A stretch of 64,000 bases of DNA. It comes from Escherichia phage phiSUSP1. The number at the start of each line of letters is the position of its first letter. Position 1 is the first letter of the stretch. Positions 23,550-60,956 of the stretch are shown one piece after another. Under the pieces are notes generated by a model. That model saw only the letters and a program-made list of their open reading frames with translations. It was not told where the DNA came from and did not search any database. The stretch lies in the sequence record KT454805, one strand, 5' to 3'. The position numbers and the translations under genes were made by a program.

Positions 23550-24446
23550 TCAACCTACTGACAAGGGAGCTTCAATCTTCCCTGCATGTCGATAGTCTTT
23601 GAAACCACCGATAAAGTCACTTGCCGTCATATGTTTGAGGTCATCCAGACATTTTAAATCTTGAACAATCTCAAACTTCGGTGCAGGAAACTCTTCATTC
23701 CCTAAAAGCTGGAATACCTGATTCATATGGTTCTGATAAATCTGAGTATCACCAAAAGTACCAATCAGATAACGAGGTGTATATCCAGTCATCTTACAAA
23801 GCACTTCCAAGATAAAACCATAAGACGCAATGTTAAATGGTAAACCTAAGAAGCTGTCTACAGAACGTTGATACCATTTTAAATCCACTTCACCAGTATT
23901 CGAGATGTAAATCTGGAAAAGCACATGACAAGGTGGTAAAGCCATTGCATTAGCTGAGATATCAGCAGCATTCCAAGCATTAACCAGCATGTAACGGTCT
24001 GTAGGAGACTTTTTCATCTTGGTAATCAGATTGTCTAGCTGGTCAACTGTAACGCCACCATGACCTTCTGAGGCTCTCCACTGGACACCATAGATACGTC
24101 CACCTGCATCATCCAACCAATCTTGCTCACTTGCATACGTTGTTTTAAGCCAACGTTCAAAGTCATTTGTCCAGATTGTCCAACGTTCCCCATCGTTTTC
24201 TCCCCAAGTACGATAGCGAAGATGACCAAGTTTATTCTCACCATTCAAGAACCATAAAGCTTCACCAATAACTTGTCTGGTCAGAACCTGTTTAGAGGTT
24301 AGTAAAGGAAAACCAGTACGCATATCAAAACGAAACTCTGGTGGTGAGAACGTTGAAATTACAGAACCAGTTCGGGTTTTACGCTGCTCACCAACTGTTA
24401 AAACATGGTTCAGAATATTTTTGTAACTTACATCTGCCTGTGACAT
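23550..24446 (-). CDS. thyA: thymidylate synthase
   Basis: catalytic-Cys motif ALPPCH; WYQRSVDSFLGLPFNIASY matches the T4 td/ThyA block from memory; DHFR immediately downstream. Confidence 0.9.
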   Translation of the reverse strand: MSQADVSYKNILNHVLTVGEQRKTRTGSVISTFSPPEFRFDMRTGFPLLTSKQVLTRQVIGEALWFLNGENKLGHLRYRTWGENDGERWTIWTNDFERWLKTTYASEQDWLDDAGGRIYGVQWRASEGHGGVTVDQLDNLITKMKKSPTDRYMLVNAWNAADISANAMALPPCHVLFQIYISNTGEVDLKWYQRSVDSFLGLPFNIASYGFILEVLCKMTGYTPRYLIGTFGDTQIYQNHMNQVFQLLGNEEFPAPKFEIVQDLKCLDDLKHMTASDFIGGFKDYRHAGKIEAPLSVG

Positions 24447-31007: not shown

Positions 31008-31235
31008 TTAAAAGAATAAGTCAGAGGCTTTTGGAGAATCTTGCACAAGACCCCACTCAGATTTCTGCCAATCAAGGCCACGATACCATGAAGCCATCGG
31101 GTAACCCATTTCACAGACAATCTTTCCATCTTTCATTTCAAAGAACTCATCAGATGTGAAGTTCTCATTACGTACTTTCTTACCTTGCTTCATTGCTTCA
31201 ACAGCTTCTTCAAAAGTCATTTTTGGTTTCTCCAA
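31008..31235 (-). CDS. DUF2829-like small protein (possible Tad2-like Thoeris signal sponge)
   Basis: N-terminal motif MTFEEAVEAMKQGKKVR and C-terminal W-rich region recalled as DUF2829 family hallmarks; 70-75 aa. Confidence 0.4.
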   Translation of the reverse strand: MEKPKMTFEEAVEAMKQGKKVRNENFTSDEFFEMKDGKIVCEMGYPMASWYRGLDWQKSEWGLVQDSPKASDLFF

Positions 31236-31502: not shown

Positions 31503-32030
31503 TCAACTTAGTTTTGCAAACTCTCCGTGAAGTTTCATAGAAGCTTCACAGTAAGCTTTATGGGCTTCTTCAGGGGTGTCATAGTAGCCTAATGACATCT
31601 TTTTACCTTTATAGCTTATTTGCGCAACCCACCTACCAGACTTCTTCTTCAGGCTTACACCCTTATAGCCTGATTTATTGGTGGATAGTTTGCTTTTATT
31701 CCAAGCACTTTGGCAGTCGTCTGCTTCTCTTAAGTTTACAATCCTGTTATCAAGGGAGTCCCCATTACTATGGTCAATAACACCTTTAGGTAACCTACCA
31801 TACACGTACAGCCATGCGAGTCTGTGCGCTTTATGTGCTTTCTTGTCAAAATAGATAGTAATCTGCTTATGACCAGTTGAGTCAATCTGGAGGCTTCCCG
31901 CTACCTGTCCTGCGTACTGGCTATTAAAAACTTTAACAGCCTTTGAGTCGCCCTCTCTACGAAGCCAAGTAAAGACCCCTATTTCGGGGTCATAGTGTAG
32001 TAGTTCCTTTAAACGTTCTTGTGTAATCAT
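31503..32030 (-). CDS. HNH homing endonuclease with AP2 DNA-binding domain
   Basis: HNH region IDHSNGDSLDNRIVNLREA; AP2-like GYKGVS...GRWVAQISYKGKKMSLGYYDTPEEAHKAY; paralogous to ORF 54234..54725. Confidence 0.8.
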   Translation of the reverse strand: MITQERLKELLHYDPEIGVFTWLRREGDSKAVKVFNSQYAGQVAGSLQIDSTGHKQITIYFDKKAHKAHRLAWLYVYGRLPKGVIDHSNGDSLDNRIVNLREADDCQSAWNKSKLSTNKSGYKGVSLKKKSGRWVAQISYKGKKMSLGYYDTPEEAHKAYCEASMKLHGEFAKLS

Positions 32031-40590: not shown

Positions 40591-41643
40591 TTGGAGATAC
40601 AAATGGAAAAGTACACGTTAACAAAACTCCCAGATACTGTGACACATGTCTTTATTGACTCTGACAGTATTGCTTACAAGGGAGCCTGTGTCGTTGAGAA
40701 AGCAAAGTACAAGTATGTGAATAAACTCACTGCTGAAGAGTCTGATGCCTTTGAAAGTGCTAAAGATGCTAATCAATGGCTATCTGACCAGAGAGTTCTG
40801 ACAGAGGAACTTGGTCTTGCATTCGATGAAGATGAATGGGAAAGACAATCTTGGAAAGAAGCTAAGAGTGAAAAAGAAGCTATTATGGCAACTCAACAAG
40901 TTCTTCAGGAATGGTTGAAGGTTGTCGGGAAAGAGCGAACTTGGATGGGCTACCTTACTGAAAAAGGTGTTCACAAGCATAAAGATATCAAAGGTCTTGA
41001 ACATCAGTATCAAGGTAATCGTAAAGACGCAGTAACACCTACGCATTTAGTTGCTTGTCGTGAGTATCTTCTGTCACGACCTGAGTTTAAGCTCTTACTT
41101 AATGGGTTTGAAGCTGACTCCATTGTTATTGCAAAAGCTGAGAAGATGGGTAAGAAGGCTGCTCTTATGAGTATTGATAAAGACCTTCGCCAAGCGGAAG
41201 GAACTTACTGTATTGATATGACTTACGAGAAAGCCCCTCTGATTTTCATTGCAGATGGTAACGTAGGTGATATTTGGGATTGTCCTATCAAGTCTAAGCC
41301 GAAAGCTAAAAAGACTGTTGGTGTAGGCTTCAAATTCCTCTGCTATCAAGCTGTAGCAGGAGATAACGCAGATAACTACTTTGGCCTTAAGGGTGCAGGG
41401 AAAGTTGCTGTAATGAACGCTCTGGAAGGTAAAGAGACCTATAAAGAGTGTCTTGACGCTATCTATGAACTCTACGCTAAGAAAGAGTCATATACTTATG
41501 AATCGTGGGATGGTCAGGTGATTACAAAAACACCTCTTGAATTAATGCACCAGCACTTCTGGATTGCCTATCAAGAACGTAACCCTAAAGACGATTTCAC
41601 CTTTGCTAAATATGGTTGGGAGCCTGTTATGAATGAAGATTAA
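40591..41643 (+). CDS. 5'-3' exonuclease / flap endonuclease (FEN family)
   Basis: H3TH-like motif AVAGDNADNYFGLKGAGKVA; acidic clusters FIDSDSIA and IDKD. Confidence 0.65.
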   Translation: MEIQMEKYTLTKLPDTVTHVFIDSDSIAYKGACVVEKAKYKYVNKLTAEESDAFESAKDANQWLSDQRVLTEELGLAFDEDEWERQSWKEAKSEKEAIMATQQVLQEWLKVVGKERTWMGYLTEKGVHKHKDIKGLEHQYQGNRKDAVTPTHLVACREYLLSRPEFKLLLNGFEADSIVIAKAEKMGKKAALMSIDKDLRQAEGTYCIDMTYEKAPLIFIADGNVGDIWDCPIKSKPKAKKTVGVGFKFLCYQAVAGDNADNYFGLKGAGKVAVMNALEGKETYKECLDAIYELYAKKESYTYESWDGQVITKTPLELMHQHFWIAYQERNPKDDFTFAKYGWEPVMNED

Positions 41644-42133
41644 AGGTTTTGGCAATTGCCCTGAATATGGACATTGGATTTCACTGTGCGGGGAGATTGA
41701 CCCCGCTAAGTATTTTGGTTTCGTTTACTTAGTGTACTGCAAAAAGACTGGACAGTATTACATCGGTAAGAAGCAGTTTAACAATGTCACCAAGAAGAAA
41801 GTAGCTGGAAAGACCAGACGTAAGATTGTGACAAAAGAGAGTGACTGGATGGTTTACCAGACCTCTTCTGAGTACATTAAGAAAGATATTGAAACTTTCG
41901 GTGAAAAAGAGTTTGACTTCTATATTGTGCAAACTTATTATACGCGAGGTGGGTTGGTCTACGGAGAAGCTAACCTTCAACATAAGTTTGACGTCATGAC
42001 AAAAAGGATTGACTCCAAGCTTCGACTCTTCTACAATGCAAACATTGCAGCAATCAAGTTTCTTACTAAAGAGACTTATGAAGATGCTGAGAAGAGAATC
42101 CATAAAATCATGAAACTTAATGAGAGAGAATAA
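41633..42133 (+). CDS. GIY-YIG nuclease domain protein
   Basis: GFVYLVYCKKTGQYYIGKK matches the GIY..YIG signature; 166 aa. Confidence 0.45.
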   Translation: MKIKGFGNCPEYGHWISLCGEIDPAKYFGFVYLVYCKKTGQYYIGKKQFNNVTKKKVAGKTRRKIVTKESDWMVYQTSSEYIKKDIETFGEKEFDFYIVQTYYTRGGLVYGEANLQHKFDVMTKRIDSKLRLFYNANIAAIKFLTKETYEDAEKRIHKIMKLNERE

Positions 42134-50056: not shown

Positions 50057-50620
50057 ATGAACTATGAACTAATCTATGACAAGTTAATGAAGAAAGCACA
50101 CTCTGAGAGGGGTGTGCCTTTAACATTTTACAAATGCCAAGGCTTAGGTTATGAGAGACACCATATCAAACCACTGTGTCTCGGAGGGGATAGATTTGAC
50201 GGTAGCAATATAGCCTTATTAACACCAAGGGAACATTATATTGCACACAAGCTTTTGGTTAAGATGCATCCTGAAAAGTACAAACTCTGGATTGCTTGGC
50301 AAAGGCTGTCTACAGATGGACTAAATAGAAAGGTTTCATCAAGAGACCATGAACACGTCAAACGTTTAAACTCAAAAGCTATGTCTATAATCAATAAAGG
50401 TAGATTGTTTACAGATGAGCATAGGTTTAGATTGAGTCAATCCCAGATTGGTAATACCAAGCCCAAAGGGTGTAAGAGGTCTTTAGAAACAAGGCAACGA
50501 ATGTCAGAATCTGCAAAGAAACCACAGGCGAAAAAGACGTGCCCATACTGCGGCATGACAGGTGGTGCAAGCAACATGACACGTTACCATTTTGAGAATT
50601 GTAAAAGTAAATCTATGTAA
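50057..50620 (+). CDS. HNH homing endonuclease inserted between nrdD and nrdG
   Basis: HNH motif ERHHIKPLCLGGDRFDGSNIALLTPREHYIAH; C-terminal Cys cluster. Confidence 0.75.
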   Translation: MNYELIYDKLMKKAHSERGVPLTFYKCQGLGYERHHIKPLCLGGDRFDGSNIALLTPREHYIAHKLLVKMHPEKYKLWIAWQRLSTDGLNRKVSSRDHEHVKRLNSKAMSIINKGRLFTDEHRFRLSQSQIGNTKPKGCKRSLETRQRMSESAKKPQAKKTCPYCGMTGGASNMTRYHFENCKSKSM

Positions 50621-52506: not shown

Positions 52507-52531
52507 AGGGAACTGTAAAAGGTTCCCTTTT
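52507..52531 (+). terminator. intrinsic terminator
   Basis: GGGAAC-tgtaaaa-GGTTCCC followed by TTTTT. Confidence 0.7.
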
Positions 52532-52546
52532 TATTTTGGAGAAATC

Positions 52547-53062
52547 ATGTACTATTCAAATCTAAAACATGCTGCTGCAATGTCTGTTCTTCGTCTTGAT
52601 TTCGATGAGCGTCAAGAGTTCATTGAATCCCACAAGTATAATCCTTCAAATTCTAATCACATGGTACTTTGGAACCGTGGTAAGTTCCGTGACAGTACCC
52701 TGTTTCAATACTATCCCCACTATACCATTGATAACCTCTATGAATATTGTGTTGTCAAGAACACTATAGCAACTCTTAACAAGCTTTGTAGATACTCTGG
52801 GAAGAAAGCTTTCACATTAGGCCACCATAAGCCTGTGACAAAAGGTGGAGAACATCATTGCTCAAACTGGTTTATTCAGACACAAGAAGATAATCAGAAG
52901 CAAGGTGAGAAGCTTCCTGAGACTCCTAAGATGACTTGGGAAGAACAAAAAGCATATCTCAGAAATAATATGCCACCAATGCTTGACAAGGACTATTCAA
53001 TTCTGGCAATATCTCTCTTGTTGAAGCTTGAGACAGTTTATGAGGCAACTTATCATGGCTAG
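52547..53062 (+). CDS. hypothetical protein with HNH-like motif (171 aa)
   Basis: LGHHKPVTKGGEHHCSNWFIQTQEDNQKQG resembles an HNH core. Confidence 0.35.
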   Translation: MYYSNLKHAAAMSVLRLDFDERQEFIESHKYNPSNSNHMVLWNRGKFRDSTLFQYYPHYTIDNLYEYCVVKNTIATLNKLCRYSGKKAFTLGHHKPVTKGGEHHCSNWFIQTQEDNQKQGEKLPETPKMTWEEQKAYLRNNMPPMLDKDYSILAISLLLKLETVYEATYHG

Positions 53063-53333
53063 AGAACAATGGGAAATCAAAGAACTCATTAGTGAAGCTG
53101 GAAATGGTAGTGAGATGTATATGATACGTGGTCACGTCCCAGATGCACTTGCTATTGAAATGATTGACCACTACTCCAACGGATTCTATAAAGAATTTGG
53201 AGAGCCAAATATTGAACGTACTTGGACAAAACCAGTACCAGATGGAACAGGGAACTGTTCAGTTATCTATCACATTGTAGACCCAAAGAAATGTAAGTCA
53301 GCTATGGCTGTAACATTTGTAACTTTTGACTGA
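53055..53333 (+). CDS. hypothetical protein (about 92 aa)
   Basis: in-frame ATG at 53055 within ORF 53028..53333. Confidence 0.3.
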   Translation: MAREQWEIKELISEAGNGSEMYMIRGHVPDALAIEMIDHYSNGFYKEFGEPNIERTWTKPVPDGTGNCSVIYHIVDPKKCKSAMAVTFVTFD

Positions 53334-53343
53334 GAGAAATATT

Positions 53344-54225
53344 ATGAAAACTATTATTCAAGTCCTGATTAATTCAAACTCTAAAGGCACTCACCAAGAG
53401 AACTTCAACATTATCCAGTTCCCTTCAGGAGAAATTGGTGGTAACTTCTCAGAAGATTTGGTAGACTTTGTTGAACATGCTGCTGGTAAGATTGATAACG
53501 TAATCTTCACGGTACAAGGCTATGATAAAGATACACTCTTTGCATTAGCTCTGGCTAAAGAAGCAATTGACCGTATGATTCCTCAGAAAGCAGCTATGAA
53601 GACTGTTGTCTTTGGTTTCTTACCAAATGCTAGATATGACCGTCACATGTTTAAAGGTGATGCAGCAGCACTTAAAGCATTTGCAAATCTTGTAAACGCT
53701 ATGGAGTTTGATGCAATTTGTGCTCTGGATGCTCATAGTAACGTGGCAGAGAATCTATTTAAGTGCTTCTACAACCTACCTCAAAAAGAGGCAGCAGTAC
53801 ACTTTGCAAGTGACCCACGAATTGATTACTTAGTGGCTCCAGATGCAGGTGCAGCTAAGAAGACTGAAGAAGCTGCTAAGGATGTTGAGAAGCCTTATAT
53901 CACAATGGCTAAGGTGCGTAACCTGAAAACTGGTGAAATCACTGGTATGCGAATCCTTGATGACGTAGATTTAACAGGCAAGACTGTCATGATTCTGGAT
54001 GATATCTGTGACGGTGGTCGTACCTTCATTGAGGCTGCAAAGTATCTTCGTGAAGCTGGTGCAGAACGTGTAGAACTGTATGTCACTCATGGGATTTTCT
54101 CTAAAGGTGTTGAAAATCTTCTTGACAACGGTATTGACCATATCTACACTACAAACTCACTAGGCGATGTAGAAGACCGTGGACTTTCACACTTCTCACA
54201 AGTGACTGTAGCAAACATTGAATAG
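53344..54225 (+). CDS. ribose-phosphate pyrophosphokinase family protein (Prs-like; possible ADPR-PP synthetase)
   Basis: Prs blocks ALDAHS, YLVAPDAGAAKK and PRTase loop VMILDDICDGGRT...YVTHGIFS; ORF track start 53326 is TTG, ATG at 53344 more likely. Confidence 0.65.
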   Translation: MKTIIQVLINSNSKGTHQENFNIIQFPSGEIGGNFSEDLVDFVEHAAGKIDNVIFTVQGYDKDTLFALALAKEAIDRMIPQKAAMKTVVFGFLPNARYDRHMFKGDAAALKAFANLVNAMEFDAICALDAHSNVAENLFKCFYNLPQKEAAVHFASDPRIDYLVAPDAGAAKKTEEAAKDVEKPYITMAKVRNLKTGEITGMRILDDVDLTGKTVMILDDICDGGRTFIEAAKYLREAGAERVELYVTHGIFSKGVENLLDNGIDHIYTTNSLGDVEDRGLSHFSQVTVANIE

Positions 54226-54233
54226 GTAACAAG

Positions 54234-54725
54234 ATGGATAAGGGTTACTTTGAAAAATACCTAAGATACGAACCAGAGACAGGTTTGTTAATTTGGAAAG
54301 TAACCCTTTGTAGCACCGCTATTGCTGGTAATGTGGCTGGCACAAGGTCTAAGAAGGGTTATATCCAAGTTCAGATAAACAAGAAGAGGTACTATGCACA
54401 CAATATCGCATGGATTCTATCTGGAGGTGAGATACCAAGTGGATATGAGATAGACCACATAGACCTTGACAAGACAAATAATAAGTTGGAAAACTTAAGA
54501 CTGAGTACAAAGTCACAAAACCAAAGAAATAGAGGTATACAAAAGAACAACAAAACTGGCGTGAAGGGTGTAAGTGTATGTACACAGACAGGTCTTTATA
54601 AAGCAAGAGTGATGCTTTATCATAAAGAATACTTTTGCGGAAGATTTAAAACGCTAGAAGAAGCGAAAGAAGCTGTAATTAAAAAACGATTAGAACTTCA
54701 TGGTAAGTTTGCAAGACATAACTAA
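54234..54725 (+). CDS. HNH homing endonuclease with AP2 domain
   Basis: HNH region IDHIDLDKTNNKLENLRLS; AP2-like GVKGVS...GLYKARVMLYHKEYFCGRFKTLEEAKEA; paralog of 31503..32030. Confidence 0.8.
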   Translation: MDKGYFEKYLRYEPETGLLIWKVTLCSTAIAGNVAGTRSKKGYIQVQINKKRYYAHNIAWILSGGEIPSGYEIDHIDLDKTNNKLENLRLSTKSQNQRNRGIQKNNKTGVKGVSVCTQTGLYKARVMLYHKEYFCGRFKTLEEAKEAVIKKRLELHGKFARHN

Positions 54726-54741
54726 TAGAGAGATATAAAAT

Positions 54742-56559
54742 ATGAGTAAATCACTTTACGCAGTACCAGCAGGTCTTAATGCAGATGCTTACAAGTCATC
54801 ACACATCTACCAGTATCCAGATGCTACTCAGTATCTTATGCTGAATTTAACGCCTCGTGGAGACAAATGGTTTAACTCTCCATTAGAAATTGATGGTGTT
54901 GTAGCATTTGGTATTCAGCGTTTTGTAAAAGACTATCTGGTAGACCACTGGAATGCAACGTTCTTTGAACGTGATAAGAAAGAAGCCATTGACGAAATCT
55001 TGGAAATCATGAATGGTGTACTTGGTGCAGATGCCATTGGTCGTCAACATTGGGAAGAACTTCATGACTTAGGTTATCTGCCTGTTGAAGTCTACTCTGT
55101 AGAGGAAGGTACAATTGTCCCTATGCGTGTCCCGATGATTATATTCAAAAACACTGTAGAGGGCTTCCATTGGGTAGCTGGTTATCTCGAAGATGCTTTC
55201 TCTGCTGAAATCTGGAAAGCTTGTACAATTGCAACTATTGCACTACATTACAAACGTATTTGTAAGAAGTGGTCAGATTTGACCTGTGATAACGACTTCC
55301 ATCTTCCTTGGCAGTGTCATGACTTTGCAATGCGTGGTATGTCTGGATTCACAGATGATGCGTTTAACGCAGTAGGTCACCTGACAAGTTTTAAAGGTAC
55401 TGACAGCTTCCCTGCTGTATACACAGCTAAACGTGCATATGGTCAGTTTATGACTGTAAGTGATATCGGGAACTCTGTACCAGCAACTGAACACTCTGTG
55501 ATGTGTGCAAACATCTCATGGAATAGTTGTGCCAAAGAAGTAAGTGATTGGCATCTGCTACAGTCTGACAACTTGTTAGATGCAATGCGTTGGCGTGGTG
55601 AGGTAGAAACTTTCCAACGTCTTCTGACAGAAGTCTACCCAACTGGTATTGCAAGTGTTGTATCAGATACTTACAACTTCTGGAGAACTGTTACACAGAT
55701 TTTACCAGAGCTACGTAATGTGATTCTGAATCGTGATGGTAAGTTGGTAATCCGTCCAGACTCTGGAGACCCTGTTCACATTGTCACTGGTTACAAAGTC
55801 ATTGAATGGGAAACTGCTAAGTCAATGTTCTATAAGCACATGAAAGGTCTTGCACCAGATAACACCCACCTGCATGATGCAATCTTGAATTGTGAAATGG
55901 CTGATATTGGCTTTGGATTATCTGCTTGGCTAATCTCTGAAGGTTATGAGATGGTTGTTGAAAATGAAGATTTTGATTATATTGATACAATCAACCTGAT
56001 TACTGCTCAGAAAACTGGACAGTTTACTGTGAAGCGTATGTTAACAGCAGAAATTGATGGAGCTATCCACACGCTGTATAACATCTTTGGTGGTACTGTT
56101 AACTCCAAAGGGTACAAAGTACTGGATGAGCACATTGGACTAATCTACGGTGATTCTATCACTTTGGAAAGGGCTAATGAGATTCTATCACGTCTTGCTG
56201 ATAAAGGTTTTGCAAGTTCTAACGTAGTGTTTGGTGTAGGTTCATACACCTATCAGTACCTGACTCGTGATACCTTTGCATTTGCTGTTAAAGCAACTCT
56301 TGCACAGATGGACGGTCAAGAAATCATGCTGGCTAAAGACCCTAAAACAGATAGTGGTCTGAAGAAATCTGCTTTTGGTGGAGTCATCCCTATGTGGGAC
56401 GGTGATAAGCTGGAAGCTGTAGATGGTTTTGGTTTTGCAGAGTTTGAAGGTGCAATTGAGAATTGTCAGAGCGCTTTGAAACTGGTATTTAGCAACTCAC
56501 AACCTTATGGTTATGTTAATCTACGTGATGTACGAAATACTATTGACAAGCAACTTTAA
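54742..56559 (+). CDS. nicotinamide phosphoribosyltransferase family protein (Nampt/NadV-like)
   Basis: blocks match Nampt from memory: DAYKSSHIYQYP, HDFAMRGMSGFTDDAFNAVGHLTSFKGTDS, VPATEHS, VVSDTYNFW, LVIRPDSGDPV. Confidence 0.8.
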   Translation: MSKSLYAVPAGLNADAYKSSHIYQYPDATQYLMLNLTPRGDKWFNSPLEIDGVVAFGIQRFVKDYLVDHWNATFFERDKKEAIDEILEIMNGVLGADAIGRQHWEELHDLGYLPVEVYSVEEGTIVPMRVPMIIFKNTVEGFHWVAGYLEDAFSAEIWKACTIATIALHYKRICKKWSDLTCDNDFHLPWQCHDFAMRGMSGFTDDAFNAVGHLTSFKGTDSFPAVYTAKRAYGQFMTVSDIGNSVPATEHSVMCANISWNSCAKEVSDWHLLQSDNLLDAMRWRGEVETFQRLLTEVYPTGIASVVSDTYNFWRTVTQILPELRNVILNRDGKLVIRPDSGDPVHIVTGYKVIEWETAKSMFYKHMKGLAPDNTHLHDAILNCEMADIGFGLSAWLISEGYEMVVENEDFDYIDTINLITAQKTGQFTVKRMLTAEIDGAIHTLYNIFGGTVNSKGYKVLDEHIGLIYGDSITLERANEILSRLADKGFASSNVVFGVGSYTYQYLTRDTFAFAVKATLAQMDGQEIMLAKDPKTDSGLKKSAFGGVIPMWDGDKLEAVDGFGFAEFEGAIENCQSALKLVFSNSQPYGYVNLRDVRNTIDKQL

Positions 56560-56571
56560 AACAGTATGATA

Positions 56572-56596
56572 AGAGGCTCCTACGGGAGCCTTTTTA
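56572..56596 (+). terminator. intrinsic terminator
   Basis: GAGGCTCC-tacg-GGAGCCT followed by TTTTT; identical to the hairpin at 62766. Confidence 0.75.
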
Positions 56597-56612
56597 ATTT
56601 GTGGAGAATGTT

Positions 56613-56828
56613 ATGAGATTTAACACTGATTTATTTTATACAGATAGTACTGGATTCTTTGGTGGATACTGTGTAGCATCTTGGCAGTTATGGTTCTCAG
56701 AAGACTACAGAGATGATATGCAGGTTTTTGTAGATGATTACAAGTTCCCTACAAAACCCACTAAACGTCAGATTAGAAAGCTTCGCAGAGAGTTTCGTAA
56801 AACTTGCAAAGGGATTAATAGACTATGA
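56613..56828 (+). CDS. hypothetical protein (about 71 aa)
   Basis: in-frame ATG at 56613 within ORF 56601..56828. Confidence 0.3.
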   Translation: MRFNTDLFYTDSTGFFGGYCVASWQLWFSEDYRDDMQVFVDDYKFPTKPTKRQIRKLRREFRKTCKGINRL

Positions 56829-57160
56829 AAATTAAACAGATGAATGTCAATGTAATCATTGAAGAACGTTGGGAAAATATTCAGCGACCTGAAGATGGTC
56901 ACAAGTTTATCAACGAACTGTTTCAAGCAGCACAGTCAGAGTTAGCTTCTGAGATTTATACAACGGTCACTTTGAAGGTTTACATCAAAGGTCTGCCACA
57001 AAATCACCAAGAGGCACTTGATTTGTTCCAAAAAGGATTCTACAATCCAAATAAAGATATACTTGAGAACAGTTTTGCAGTATCTTCGAGTATTGTTCAT
57101 GACAGAAGTTTTGTCCTATTCAGAACTGTAGGAGATAAGGTATGCAAAGTTATTGGTTAG
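56825..57160 (+). CDS. hypothetical protein (111 aa)
   Basis: ORF track; coupled start. Confidence 0.35.
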   Translation: MKIKQMNVNVIIEERWENIQRPEDGHKFINELFQAAQSELASEIYTTVTLKVYIKGLPQNHQEALDLFQKGFYNPNKDILENSFAVSSSIVHDRSFVLFRTVGDKVCKVIG

Positions 57161-57383: not shown

Positions 57384-59756
57384 ATGCGCATGGTAAATGA
57401 CCACGCAACTGTAATTAAAAGCTCAAGTACACTGGAAACCTCTCAGGCTCAGATTAAGATGACACCTGAAATGTTCAGTCTCCTAAGCTCAGGTGTTTAC
57501 ACATACAAAGAACGTGCTGTTATTCGTGAGTTATCATGTAACGCAGTAGATGCTCACATTGATTCTGGTAATGTTGATAAACCTTTCTTGGTTCACTTAC
57601 CAACTCGTTTTGAACCTTTCTTTGAAGTTCGTGATTTTGGTACAGGTCTGACTCATGATAAAGTTATGAAGCTTTACATGACCTATGGAGAATCTACAAA
57701 GAATGATTCGAACGACTACATCGGTGCTATGGGTATCGGCTCAAAGTCACCATTTGCAATTGCTCAGTCATTTACTGTGTCAAGCTATGTTGATGGTGTA
57801 GTTAATAAATACTCAGTTTATCTTGAGAATGGTATTCCTCAAGTGACTAAGTTGACTACTAACCCAACTACCGAACCAAATGGTTTAGCTGTTCGCGTAG
57901 CAGTATCTGACAACCGTATTAATAAGTTCCATGAAGAAGCAAGTAATGTTTACTCATACTTCAAAGTGAAACCAGAATGCAACGTTGAGTACTACGACAT
58001 TCTTGAAGCGATGACTTCCATCTCTCGTGAAGATGGTATCTATGATGCAATGAAGTACAAAGAAAACTGGCGTTCAAATAGTAACAGTGTACATTTCAAT
58101 GTAATCATGGGTAATATTGCTTATCCTGTTGAAATGGGTGAACTGCTTGGTTCAGAGTTTACAAGTATTCTGCCTCAGTTCTTCCGTAGTGCTGTAGACC
58201 TTGTTAATATCTACATGCCAATCGGTTCAGTGGCTATCGCTGCATCTCGTGAAGCATTGCAGATGAATGAGACCACTAAGACAAAGATTGTTGAAGCTGT
58301 GAAGAAAATCACTAAGACAATAGTTGAAGATGTGGTAAAAGAGATTGCTAATAAGCCAACTCTGATTGATGCTGCACAAGCTTATGACACCATGAGGAAA
58401 GAGGCTCGTGAAATCTTTAATCACGTCCAAGATTCTCTGGAGTGGCAAGGTCAGAACTTGAAAAAGCTTGAACAAAAGCTGTTGGGTATTCGTCGTGGTC
58501 AGTTAACTGAAGCAGATGGTTCTCCATCATTCTTGAAAGATGATGCAGGTAACTTAAGGCTTGACAAAGACGGTAATCCAGTTCCTAATATTGGTAATCT
58601 GTATGAACCTGTAGCGTATTACAAGTACAGCAGTCTGGAGAATCGTATTCGAGCAACTTCAGCAACATATTCACAAGATGCTGCAATGTTCAGTATCTTT
58701 GGTGCAATGAGTAAAGATAAGTTGAGCAACTACTTGTTCCTTATCAATGACCGTCGAAACAAGAACGGGTCTGAAAAGACGACTGGTAAAAATCAGATTA
58801 TCCGTGGAGCTTGCCGTGACCGTGAACAGGAAGATTCTAACTTCCGTCGCTATAATGGTATTGCTTTCTTGTTCAGCAGTCAGCAGCAATTTGATGAGTT
58901 TGTAGCTTTGCATATGCTTGACAAGAATCTGTTAAGTGTGCATACAATGTCAGCTAAAGAGCACCACTATGAGAAACGTACCATTGTACGTGGTGTAGTG
59001 AAACTGTACAAAGCATACTTCAGCCCTGCAACTGGAAGGGTTCTTTATACGGAAGTTAAAGAAAACTTTGATGAGATTGAAGAACCACAACTATATATCA
59101 AAGCACAGAGTGATGAAGTTCTGGGTGGTATCTTCTCATGCTCACCAGAACGTGCTGCAACGTTGATGACAGAACTAACTGGACAACCAGTTTATGTCTT
59201 CCGTAAAGCAAACTGGAAAAAGATTCCTGAAGATTGGGCTGAAGTCAATGCACAGGTGATGAAAGATTTTATTGAGAATACTCACTGGATTGAGTATCAT
59301 CGATACTTGACGTATCAGTATATGACTGATAAGCATGATATTACAGACTGTAATGTTGTTGCTCGTAACTTCAACTTTGCTGGTAAGAAGAAGTCAAGAG
59401 GTCATGTATATAACAAAGACTTTGATTCAACAATCCTGTTAGAAGGGAACGAAGACGCTGTAGAAGCAATGTTTGGTCGCTTGGCATACACTGCTGCACC
59501 GATTGCTTATAAAGAAGTCTACAGCACTCTTGACACTCTTCGCAGGAATATGAGAGGCTCTTGTAAGCCAAGAAAGATTCTGGACAATGCTAAGAAGCGT
59601 CTTGAAAGCAAGTTCAAAGATTACTTTGAGAAACGCCGTAAAGAAAACTTCTTGCTTTCTAATCTGGATTGGAATAAAGTGTCACCTGTTGAAGTTGGTA
59701 GGTTCTTAGGATTTGACGTTAGAGGTCTTCCAGAAGATACCAACTGTTGGGAATAA
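57384..59756 (+). CDS. rIIA: rIIA-like protein with N-terminal GHKL ATPase domain
   Basis: Bergerat-fold motifs ELSCNAVDA (N box), DFGTGL (G1), GAMGIGSKS (G2); 790 aa; followed by rIIB-sized gene. Confidence 0.5.
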   Translation: MRMVNDHATVIKSSSTLETSQAQIKMTPEMFSLLSSGVYTYKERAVIRELSCNAVDAHIDSGNVDKPFLVHLPTRFEPFFEVRDFGTGLTHDKVMKLYMTYGESTKNDSNDYIGAMGIGSKSPFAIAQSFTVSSYVDGVVNKYSVYLENGIPQVTKLTTNPTTEPNGLAVRVAVSDNRINKFHEEASNVYSYFKVKPECNVEYYDILEAMTSISREDGIYDAMKYKENWRSNSNSVHFNVIMGNIAYPVEMGELLGSEFTSILPQFFRSAVDLVNIYMPIGSVAIAASREALQMNETTKTKIVEAVKKITKTIVEDVVKEIANKPTLIDAAQAYDTMRKEAREIFNHVQDSLEWQGQNLKKLEQKLLGIRRGQLTEADGSPSFLKDDAGNLRLDKDGNPVPNIGNLYEPVAYYKYSSLENRIRATSATYSQDAAMFSIFGAMSKDKLSNYLFLINDRRNKNGSEKTTGKNQIIRGACRDREQEDSNFRRYNGIAFLFSSQQQFDEFVALHMLDKNLLSVHTMSAKEHHYEKRTIVRGVVKLYKAYFSPATGRVLYTEVKENFDEIEEPQLYIKAQSDEVLGGIFSCSPERAATLMTELTGQPVYVFRKANWKKIPEDWAEVNAQVMKDFIENTHWIEYHRYLTYQYMTDKHDITDCNVVARNFNFAGKKKSRGHVYNKDFDSTILLEGNEDAVEAMFGRLAYTAAPIAYKEVYSTLDTLRRNMRGSCKPRKILDNAKKRLESKFKDYFEKRRKENFLLSNLDWNKVSPVEVGRFLGFDVRGLPEDTNCWE

Positions 59757-59834: not shown

Positions 59835-60956
59835 ATGACTACTAAGACTAAAGCACAAATCGACGCAGAAATCTACGCACTGGTTAAAGAAGGTAAACTG
59901 ACCAAAACTGCAATTGCTCTGAAGTACAATACTTCAACTCGTTCTGTAGGTCGTGCTGTAGAGCGTCATGAAGCAACTCTGCTGACAGGGAAAACCAAAG
60001 CAAAACCTGCAAAGACCCTGAAAGATATTGCAAAGGGTGCTAAGAAAGCTAAAGCAACTAAAAAGGTAGCTACCCAGAAACCTATTGCAAAAGCTGTTAA
60101 AGAGGCAGCCAAAGCAGAACCTGTAAATGCTCTGCACGAAGCGATGCAGAATAACAGCCAGATTGAGTACATGATTACTGGTGACTCGGTTATCATGACT
60201 TTCGGTGCAGAGTCAGAGATTGTTGAGTCAACTCACCCTAACTACACTGAAATTGTTATGGCTGTTGTATCAGGTGAGTACAAGAAAGCCTTTGAACTGA
60301 TGAACATTCGCAAATCCATTGAGAACTTCACTCAGGGTGCTGTGACCATTAAAGGTGATAACCTGTACTACGGTGCTGTTCAAATGCGTTCAACTCTGGT
60401 AGACCGTATTCTGGACATGATGAAGAAAGGCGATGAAGGCTTTACCCGTCTTATTGCATTCTTCGAAAAACTGATGGAAAACCCATCAAAAGATTCTGTA
60501 GAACAACTTTGGGGCTTTGTGTCACACCTCGATGTTGAAATTGATGAAGAAGGTTATATCATCGGTTGGAAGAAAGTCACAACTCGTAGTGGTAAACTGT
60601 TTGACTCTCGTACCTGCAAAGTGCCAAACGATTTGGGTAACATTGTTGAAATGCCACGTTGGATGGTTGATAATAACCGCCATGTAACATGCTCTCAAGG
60701 TCTACATGTTGGTGCTTGGGATTACGTAACTAGCTTCTCTGGTGACACTATCCTGAAAGTTCGTGTTCACCCTCGTGATGTTGTTTCAGTACCAACTGAC
60801 TACAACGATATGAAGATGCGAGCCTCTCGTTATGAAGTTGCAGCGATTGTAAATAGTCGCCGTGAAGTCATCAAAGAGTGGGATGGTTCAGAAGCACTCC
60901 ACGTAGTTGTAGGAACTGCTGGTGAACTGATTTCTCAGCGTAAACGTGAAGTCTAA
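59835..60956 (+). CDS. rIIB: rIIB-like protein (putative)
   Basis: 373 aa ORF directly downstream of the rIIA-like gene; no independent motif. Confidence 0.35.
   Translation: MTTKTKAQIDAEIYALVKEGKLTKTAIALKYNTSTRSVGRAVERHEATLLTGKTKAKPAKTLKDIAKGAKKAKATKKVATQKPIAKAVKEAAKAEPVNALHEAMQNNSQIEYMITGDSVIMTFGAESEIVESTHPNYTEIVMAVVSGEYKKAFELMNIRKSIENFTQGAVTIKGDNLYYGAVQMRSTLVDRILDMMKKGDEGFTRLIAFFEKLMENPSKDSVEQLWGFVSHLDVEIDEEGYIIGWKKVTTRSGKLFDSRTCKVPNDLGNIVEMPRWMVDNNRHVTCSQGLHVGAWDYVTSFSGDTILKVRVHPRDVVSVPTDYNDMKMRASRYEVAAIVNSRREVIKEWDGSEALHVVVGTAGELISQRKREV

Follow-up and report, generated by a model that had tools for sequence, protein, structure and literature searches.

Prs- and Nampt-family genes of Escherichia phage phiSUSP1 probably form a NARP1 operon split by a homing endonuclease gene

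The locus and the question it raises

Escherichia phage phiSUSP1 (sequence record KT454805) carries, almost side by side, a gene of the phosphoribosyl pyrophosphate (PRPP) synthetase (Prs) family and a gene of the nicotinamide phosphoribosyltransferase (Nampt) family, which raises the question whether the two serve classical nicotinamide salvage or rebuild NAD+ after its depletion by bacterial defence. The stretch of 64,000 nucleotides (nt) analysed here, referred to as the window, represents ~64 kb of the ~88-kb phage genome, and 88 non-overlapping open reading frames (ORFs) of at least 45 amino acids (aa) were mapped on it. At 53344..56559 the window holds three intact ORFs on the + strand, a Prs-family gene, an HNH endonuclease gene and a Nampt-family gene, with gaps of 8 nt between the first two and 16 nt between the last two. 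An earlier note on this DNA had placed the outer genes at 53344..54225 and 54742..56559, which is exactly where we find their ORFs, and had put forward an assignment of the pair as ADP-ribose (ADPR) pyrophosphate synthetase (Adps) together with nicotinamide ADP-ribose transferase (Namat), the two enzymes of the NARP1 pathway. Orthology to the corresponding genes of phage Bas63, the substrate clamp of the predicted Namat, the profile score of the predicted Adps and the finding of no nicotinamide mononucleotide (NMN) adenylyltransferase (Nmnat) now lend support to this assignment. We consider it very probable that this Ounavirinae phage carries an intact NARP1 operon here, split by a selfish homing endonuclease gene.

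NARP1 was discovered in genes 79 and 80 of Bas63 (bioRxiv 10.1101/2024.02.11.579819). A Bas63 phage lacking both genes no longer overcomes SIR2-HerA, NAD+ dropped lower in infections with this deletion phage than with wild-type Bas63, ADPR-pyrophosphate (ADPR-PP) was detected only when wild-type phage was combined with the defence system, and the phenotype was unaffected by host pncC and nadR. The same work demonstrated both reactions with purified SPbetaL1 homologues and, in the survey by Osterman et al., found NARP1 encoded by 859 phage genomes, or 4.3% of the total (bioRxiv 10.1101/2024.02.11.579819). In an independent screen, single deletions of g79 or g80 cut plating on Sir2-HerA by 10^4-10^6 and could be complemented (bioRxiv 10.1101/2024.10.10.617714).

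Applied to phiSUSP1, this mechanism would run as follows. A defence system that depletes NAD+ (SIR2-HerA, type I Thoeris, DSR1/2 or SEFIR) would split NAD+ into ADPR and nicotinamide, Adps would move the pyrophosphate of ATP onto ADPR to give ADPR-PP, and Namat would swap the pyrophosphate of ADPR-PP for nicotinamide, yielding NAD+ directly without an NMN intermediate or an Nmnat. The preference of Namat for ADPR-PP over PRPP would come from an adenine clamp composed of K42-W43 in the selectivity-clamp loop (SCL) and the motif GSYTYQYLTRD in the selectivity-clamp helix (SCH), and the HNH ORF in the spacer between adps and namat would play no role in the pathway. The mechanism is established for orthologues and homologues of the two proteins, and we infer it for those of the window.

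The gene pair is orthologous to the NARP1 operon of Bas63

A megablast search with positions 53000-57000 of the window matched 256 phage records, which by the records listed and by organism names are Felix O1-like (Ounavirinae), the best being Salmonella phage S.Kent 1-2-1 (94.7%) and the Citrobacter phages Moogle and Mijalis (92.7%). The window derives from a Mooglevirus/Felixounavirus-type phage of the Ounavirinae. Its ORF map is collinear with that of Bas63 (JohannRWettstein; MZ501086), likewise a member of the Ounavirinae, from the large terminase to past rIIB, and the two have in common the order NrdD, NrdG, two small ORFs, the prs-like/nampt-like pair, three small ORFs, rIIA and rIIB, which places both loci between the NrdG block and rIIA/rIIB. 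The Prs-family protein is 81% identical to Bas63_0079 across all 293 residues without a gap, the Bas63 protein being of the same length, and the Nampt-family protein is 75% identical to Bas63_0080. Judged by identity and gene order, the pair are syntenic orthologues of Bas63 genes 79 and 80 (bas63_0079, adps; bas63_0080, namat), so that the NARP1 assignment stands on orthology to a validated operon, beyond shared folds.

The resemblance extends to protein features, since the SCL segment DKWFNSPL is the same in both Namats, their SCH motifs are near-identical and insertions occur at the same sites, the insertion at aa 259-284 being 11 aa shorter in Bas63. The Bas63 locus differs in that it has no HNH gene, that a spacer of 45 bp with a GC hairpin lies between its adps and namat, and that the first ~100 nt of the window namat are of an HNH-linked type shared with Felix O1.

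Profile searches are in keeping with this. The Prs-like ORF matches the Pfam families Pribosyltran (PF00156; 8.7e-11) and Pribosyl_synth (PF14572; 2.7e-10), and the Nampt-like ORF matches NAPRTase (PF04095; 1.2e-31) and NAMPT_N (PF18127; 4.4e-06). Osterman et al. initially spotted the NARP1 operon through three of these families, PF14572, PF18127 and PF04095. From the stop codon of adps to the start codon of namat there are 516 nt with a single ORF between them, well inside the distance of 10 genes that Osterman et al. allowed for the pair.

The Nampt-family protein carries the adenine-clamp signature of Namat

The Nampt-family gene (54742..56559, + strand, 605 aa) is assigned as namat by its identity to Bas63_0080, by a sequence search of the PDB and by conserved residues. 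In the PDB search its product scored 421 bits (5.7e-125) against SPbetaL1 Namat (9W5W/9W5X), compared with 173 bits against Xanthomonas Nampt and ~144 bits against human Nampt. Likewise, it is 44-47% identical to the Namats of SPbetaL1, FADO and ICP1 versus 31% to the Nampt of phage KP27. The catalytic core is kept (F195, R198, D221, H251, R338 and D340, corresponding to F189, R192, D215, the catalytic His, R306 and D308 of SPbetaL1 Namat), and all contacts of the SPbetaL1 enzyme to nicotinamide, ribose-phosphate and adenine are conserved or conservatively replaced (S190 by A, A362 by S, F392 by Y, and R40 by K with W43 as the stacking residue).

The structures of SPbetaL1 Namat (PDB 9W5W and 9W5X) define the adenine 'selectivity clamp', in which the SCH follows the signature GSX-phi-X-phi-X-phi-TRD and the SCL provides a stacking residue, either Arg or, as in Bas63, a Lys/Tyr followed by the stacking residue (PMC12774641). 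Aligned with R40 of SPbetaL1 Namat and with the Bas63 protein, the SCL of the window Namat spans aa 39-50 (RGDKWFNSPLEI; 54856..54891, + strand). Its K42-W43 repeats the Lys plus aromatic arrangement of Bas63 DKWF exactly, with a predicted stacking role. The SCH motif GSYTYQYLTRD (aa 500-510; 56239..56271, + strand) matches the published signature, its third and seventh residues being aromatic. The equivalent motif reads GSYTYQYMTRD in Bas63 and GSFTYQYNTRD in SPbetaL1, while the Nampt of KP27, a T4-like phage with no prs-like gene within 3 kb, reads GGGLLQEVTRD at this site. For the window protein, sequence does separate Namat from Nampt.

Other Adps-linked Namats vary at the SCH. Erwinia phage Tian has GSFTYQMITRD and Pseudomonas phage Y1-MI has GSYTYQCNTRD, both with a non-aromatic residue at position 7, and the site in Listeria phage LP-048 reads GAYMYSFSLSRD. 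The published SCH signature is not universal among Adps-linked Namats; it suffices for linkage to NARP1 but apparently is not required.

Relative to SPbetaL1 Namat, the window protein contains a 26-aa insertion (aa 259-284; 55516..55593, + strand) and a 78-aa insertion (aa 362-439; 55825..56058, + strand), both placed by alignment. The latter sits just past the RPDSGDP strand, where the Namats of Erwinia, Listeria, Klebsiella and Pseudomonas phages also have variable insertions. We considered the 78-aa insertion as the mark of a new variant and rejected this, since many Adps-linked Namats, including that of Bas63, vary at this site. A word search of the structural paper PMC12774641 found no mention of Namat insertions or extra domains.

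The Prs-family protein groups with Namat-linked Adps

The Prs-family gene (53344..54225, + strand, 293 aa) is assigned as adps by its identity to Bas63_0079, by its Pfam matches and by comparison to an Adps profile. Its ATG start agrees with the annotations of Bas63 and Felix O1; a TTG upstream at 53326 would add 6 codons. We built the profile from six Namat-adjacent Prs homologues from outside the Ounavirinae (SPbetaL1, FADO, ICP1, Listeria LP-048, Klebsiella 05F01 and Pseudomonas Y1-MI), on which the window protein reached 200.6 bits, compared with 94.7 bits for E. coli Prs. All NCBIfam Prs equivalog models gave scores below their cutoffs, the best being NF002095 with 109.1 versus 296 bits, and the only Prs model passed was the broad subfamily TIGR01251 (131 versus 113 bits). 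Such a profile comparison had been proposed in the earlier note as a way to tell Adps from Prs, and its outcome favours Adps. By these scores the protein groups with Namat-linked Adps, apart from housekeeping Prs.

The predicted catalytic lysine is K190 (AKVRN; nt 53911-53913, + strand), which aligns with K162 of SPbetaL1 Adps, the catalytic lysine that Osterman et al. mutated, with K197 of B. subtilis Prs and with the lysine in EKER/EKKR of archaeal Prs; the MAFFT alignment of K190 to E. coli Prs is shifted by one residue. A search of the PDB for a solved Adps structure returned Prs chains only, and no published residue signature is known that separates Adps from Prs. Sequence comparison thus appears to set the window Adps apart from Prs less cleanly than Namat from Nampt, yet it does so consistently. 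The caution that sequence alone does not tell Prs from Adps, or NadV from Namat, went too far here in view of the synteny and identity with Bas63 genes 79 and 80, the SCH/SCL clamp, the differences in score (421 versus 144 and 200.6 versus 94.7 bits) and the finding of no Nmnat in the window among the families listed.

Two Prs motifs are altered in all Adps compared, at aa 96-100 and 219-227 of the window protein. The ATP-site motif RQDR of Prs is changed (to RYDR in the window protein, to RMDR in both SPbetaL1 and FADO, to RADR in ICP1), and the ribose-5-phosphate loop, DDMIDTGGT in E. coli Prs, loses its Thr (DDICDGGRT in the window, DDLSSFGGT in SPbetaL1). Both alterations are candidate determinants of ADPR use.

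No Nmnat was found, and classical salvage is unlikely

Since NARP1 needs no Nmnat, whereas the NARP2 pathway combines a Nampt with an Nmnat, we searched the window for such a gene. Pfam scans of the 88 window ORFs gave no match to CTP_transf_like/NMNAT (PF01467), NadR, Nudix, Macro or RyR among the families listed, which for one batch were the best 25 of 32 by E-value, the other seven being presumably weaker than ~0.0025. Likewise, for the two genes on each side of the HNH ORF no Macro or RyR match was obtained. The earlier statement that the window shows no Nmnat was thereby borne out among the families listed. A search of the whole genome for an Nmnat or NadR homologue had also been suggested; in the ~64-kb window this was done directly and none was found, and for the remainder the annotation of Bas63 from 30 to 87.1 kb served as proxy and likewise lists no Nmnat. 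These results fit NARP1. Within the window they rule out NARP2, as no phage Nmnat is among the families listed, and they rule out the variants NARP1-AP, which includes a Macro phosphatase, and RyDEP-NARP1, as no Macro or RyR signal was seen. Taken together, the locus has every sequence-testable feature of NARP1 and lacks those of NARP2, of NARP1-AP and of a housekeeping Prs.

Several points weigh against reading the locus as a NARP1 operon. About 24 kb of the phage genome lie outside the window. The evidence for function comes from other genomes, in that the biochemistry was done on SPbetaL1 proteins and is carried over to the window via the in vivo data on Bas63. The window Adps is only 29% identical to the assayed SPbetaL1 Adps, compared with 25% to E. 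coli Prs, so that a function as Adps is suggested mainly by the Bas63 in vivo data. In the SCH, the third phi position is Leu instead of the usual Asn/Val (Met in Bas63). Co-transcription of adps, the HNH gene and namat is predicted only from their spacing and from consensus terminator scans. Finally, Namat retains PRPP-to-NMN activity in vitro (PMC12774641), which makes some flux through classical salvage possible.

The last point and the genome portion beyond the window also bear on the likeliest alternative, in which an ordinary PRPP synthetase and a NadV/Nampt make NMN, and the remaining step to NAD+ is taken by host NadR/PncC or by a phage Nmnat not seen here, in a NARP2-like manner or as general metabolic boosting. 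Existing annotation leans towards it, as relatives of the two genes are named 'ribose-phosphate pyrophosphokinase' and 'nicotinamide phosphoribosyltransferase', and a protein of the pair passes the NCBIfam model NF006629 (467.5 versus 405 bits). Against this stand the adenine clamp, which is present here and absent from the KP27 Nampt encoded without an Adps, the failure of the Prs-like protein to reach any Prs equivalog cutoff, and the lack of an Nmnat in the window (among the families listed) and in the Bas63 annotation. We therefore hold classical salvage to be an improbable explanation of the pair, and NARP1 to be the preferred one.

A mobile HNH cassette separates adps and namat

The space between adps and namat is filled by a cassette (54226..54741, + strand), recognised as mobile by its HNH_3 and phrog_99 matches and by its presence or absence among related phages. 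It contains a 163-aa ORF (54234..54725, + strand) for an HNH_3 endonuclease whose C-terminal, DNA-binding region is AP2-like. The ORF matches HNH_3 of Pfam (9.3e-19) and phrog_99 (7.3e-68). It had been described as an HNH-AP2 endonuclease, of which the HNH part stands directly. The AP2 part found no Pfam match even at E<=10, yet over its C-terminal aa 106-161 the protein is 33% identical (E 2e-27) to the AP2 domain, significant in Pfam, of a paralogue at 31503..32030 (- strand), and AP2 homology is in this way supported indirectly.

The HNH gene is present in Moogle, phiWec172 and Felix O1. It is missing both from Bas63 and from Citrobacter phage HP1, which belongs to the same genus and whose flanks share 95-98% identity with the window. 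With the sensitivity of megablast, the gene turns up in 60 Ounavirinae records versus the 256 that match the whole locus, and the order Prs-HNH-Nampt is also found in Tian, a distant phage of the genus Kolesnikvirus. When the window is compared with Felix O1, nt identity is 94.7% for the HNH gene versus 81% for adps and 75.5% for namat, and the jump in identity begins at the HNH start codon and ends ~100 nt inside namat. Comparison of nt 1-105 with nt 106-600 of namat delimits a co-conversion tract of ~105 nt (54742..54846, + strand). Within nt 1-105 the HNH-bearing genomes group across genera (93.3% between the window and Felix O1, versus 79.0% between Felix O1 and Bas63 and 83.8% between the window and HP1), whereas identity over nt 106-600 follows genus (97.8% between the window and HP1, 97.8% between Felix O1 and Bas63, and 82.0% between the window and Felix O1). 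The cassette moves horizontally among Ounavirinae genera and takes the first ~100 nt of namat along, a pattern expected of homing with downstream co-conversion. We conclude from these comparisons that the middle gene is a predicted free-standing homing endonuclease, outside the NARP1 pathway.

Alignment of the junctions puts the cassette in place of a ~45-bp, hairpin-bearing spacer of the HNH-less phages HP1 and Bas63, while the Shine-Dalgarno-like GAGAGAT ahead of the namat start is kept despite the cassette. The hairpin reads GGGGCT-GAGA-AGCCCC in HP1 (~2727-2770 of the HP1 stretch compared) and GGGGCT-TGAA-AGCCCC followed by ATTTTG in Bas63 (23629-23673 of the Bas63 stretch compared), and it is wholly replaced in the window. 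This conserved hairpin might be an attenuator, an RNA-stability element or the target of the endonuclease.

This pattern of transfer and co-conversion hints at a cleavage site within the spacer, or at the 5' end of namat, in alleles that lack the endonuclease. Beyond the observed pattern, we give about even chances to a fuller scenario in which the cassette homes to the NARP1 operon: the endonuclease would cut HNH-less alleles, either in the spacer or within the initial ~100 nt of namat, and the cassette would be copied together with the adjoining namat segment, shuffling counter-defence alleles across genera, while loss of the native hairpin may shift the Adps:Namat ratio.

The insertion could also have uncoupled or silenced the operon and left the pair as a decaying remnant without counter-defence function. 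This would fit the loss of the native spacer with its hairpin and the 516 nt that now part the two genes. It is, however, difficult to reconcile with the full length of both ORFs and their intact catalytic residues, with the persistence of Prs-HNH-Nampt in at least 60 genomes, among them those of Felix O1 and Tian, or with the retained GAGAGAT and the lack of any predicted terminator-like site between adps and namat, and we regard decay as very unlikely. Least probable of all is a role for the middle gene as a third functional component of NARP1 like the Macro phosphatase Adpp or the RyR glycosidase RyDEP, for although three-gene NARP1 operons are documented (e.g. Adps-phosphatase-Namat of Vibrio phage Gary) and small genes lie between adps and namat in other phages too, this ORF is an HNH_3 protein with an AP2-like tail and no Macro or RyR signal, is missing from HP1 and from Bas63, where NARP1 was validated, both of which keep adps and namat, and bears the signatures of horizontal transfer and co-conversion typical of homing endonucleases.

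Further free-standing endonuclease genes lie elsewhere in the window. The HNH_3 plus AP2 paralogue at 31503..32030 adjoins the DNA polymerase gene, a SegE-type GIY-YIG gene is located at 41633..42133 (+ strand), and an HNH/NUMOD3 ORF follows just past nrdD at 50057..50620 (+ strand); in Bas63, a homing endonuclease interrupts nrdD itself. Elements of this kind have colonised the genome heavily.

Comparison with known NAD+ reconstitution systems

NARP1 at this locus is already known, since the pair is orthologous to the founding operon, in a phage of a sister genus and at the same locus, and the HNH-interrupted arrangement is already present in the Felix O1 reference genome. Felix O1 ORF127 (prs)-ORF128 (HNH)-nadV and Moogle gp7-gp6-gp5 have the same three-gene arrangement as the window, the HNH gene of Moogle being 92.5% identical to that of the window at the nt level. 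They differ in being annotated as classical Prs/NadV salvage only, and in their flanks, which are 75-81% (Felix O1) and 87-95% (Moogle) identical.

The two-enzyme chemistry predicted for the window is that assayed for Adps and Namat of SPbetaL1, the latter also crystallised. The proteins are, however, just 29% (Adps) and 45% (Namat) identical, SPbetaL1 Namat is without the 26-aa and 78-aa insertions, and the SPbetaL1 genes overlap with no ORF between them. NARP2, with a KVP40-type Nampt and an Nmnat, and gp265 of Klebsiella phage KP27 have the Nampt fold and catalytic core in common with the window protein. Yet NARP2 requires an Nmnat, none of which was found in the window, and KP27 gp265, besides its low identity of 31%, has no aromatic clamp and no Prs-like gene nearby. 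NARP1-AP (Adps-Adpp-Namat of Vibrio phage Gary) and RyDEP-NARP1 of mycobacteriophage DyoEdafos resemble the window in having a third gene inside the operon. In these systems the extra gene encodes a Macro-domain ADPR-1-phosphate (ADPR-1P) phosphatase or a RyR-domain cyclic ADPR (cADPR) glycosidase that feeds the pathway, whereas that of the window is a mobile HNH gene unrelated to ADPR chemistry.

As judged from its genes, phiSUSP1 would carry a complete, apparently functional NAD+ reconstitution pathway, and a complete NARP1 predicts that the phage should withstand defences that deplete NAD+, such as SIR2-HerA, type I Thoeris and DSR. This is useful for host-range prediction and for the choice of therapeutic Felix O1-like phages, and the 'Prs' and 'NadV' annotations of Ounavirinae genomes should become Adps and Namat. 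The only mildly new element is the evidence for recurrent homing of an HNH gene into a counter-defence operon with the namat 5' end carried along. If true, the homing scenario would be a concrete case of a selfish endonuclease shuffling the alleles of an anti-immunity operon.

Transcription unit and neighbouring genes

A consensus scan placed a terminator-like hairpin at 52507..52528 (+ strand), a possible 5' boundary of the transcription unit at a place equivalent to an annotated terminator of Moogle. A second, with a 10-bp stem and a T-run, lies at 56571..56594 (+ strand), 12 nt past the namat stop, and by consensus scan only is the likely 3' end. The two enclose five genes, namely a 171-aa ORF, a 92-aa ORF, adps, the HNH gene and namat, and the scan placed no terminator-like site between adps and namat. 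Since the scans gave at most weak enrichment over shuffled sequences (6 terminator-like sites versus 3.3 +/- 1.7, and 20 promoter-like sites versus 16.5), these boundaries are tentative.

The 171-aa ORF (52547..53062, + strand; phrog_3500) and the 92-aa ORF (53055..53333, + strand; phrog_4726) are neighbours of the NARP1 genes and not components of the pathway. We rejected the former as a NARP1 accessory because its Phapecoctavirus homologue adjoins a UvrD-type helicase, away from prs/nampt, and the latter as a pathway component because its matches fall almost all in phage records of Enterobacteriaceae (Ounavirinae-type) and are uninformative. The 171-aa protein is 74% identical to Bas63 gp77, which the PhageMaP preprint reports to counter the Ec67 retron and describes with a GIY-YIG domain. 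In our scans it had no Pfam match and weak HNH/IscB-like matches only (PHROG 2e-05, NCBIfam 8e-04).

Downstream, the ORFs at 57384..59756 and 59835..60956 (+ strand) correspond by position to Bas63 g84 (rIIA) and g85 (rIIB), and the counterpart of the former is annotated as rIIA in Moogle and HP1. Bas63 g84/g85 counter QatABCD according to the PhageMaP preprint. By analogy with Bas63, the region at ~52.5-61 kb of the window looks like a counter-defence gene cluster comprising the gp77 homologue, NARP1 and rIIA/rIIB. Far from this region, a 75-aa ORF at 31008..31235 (- strand) gives a weak, partial match to Pfam PF11195 (Tad2-like, Thoeris anti-defence 2) with E 4.9e-05, covering model positions 1-32 of 73 at 24.2 bits versus a gathering score of 25; this could reflect a second anti-Thoeris gene or mere chance.

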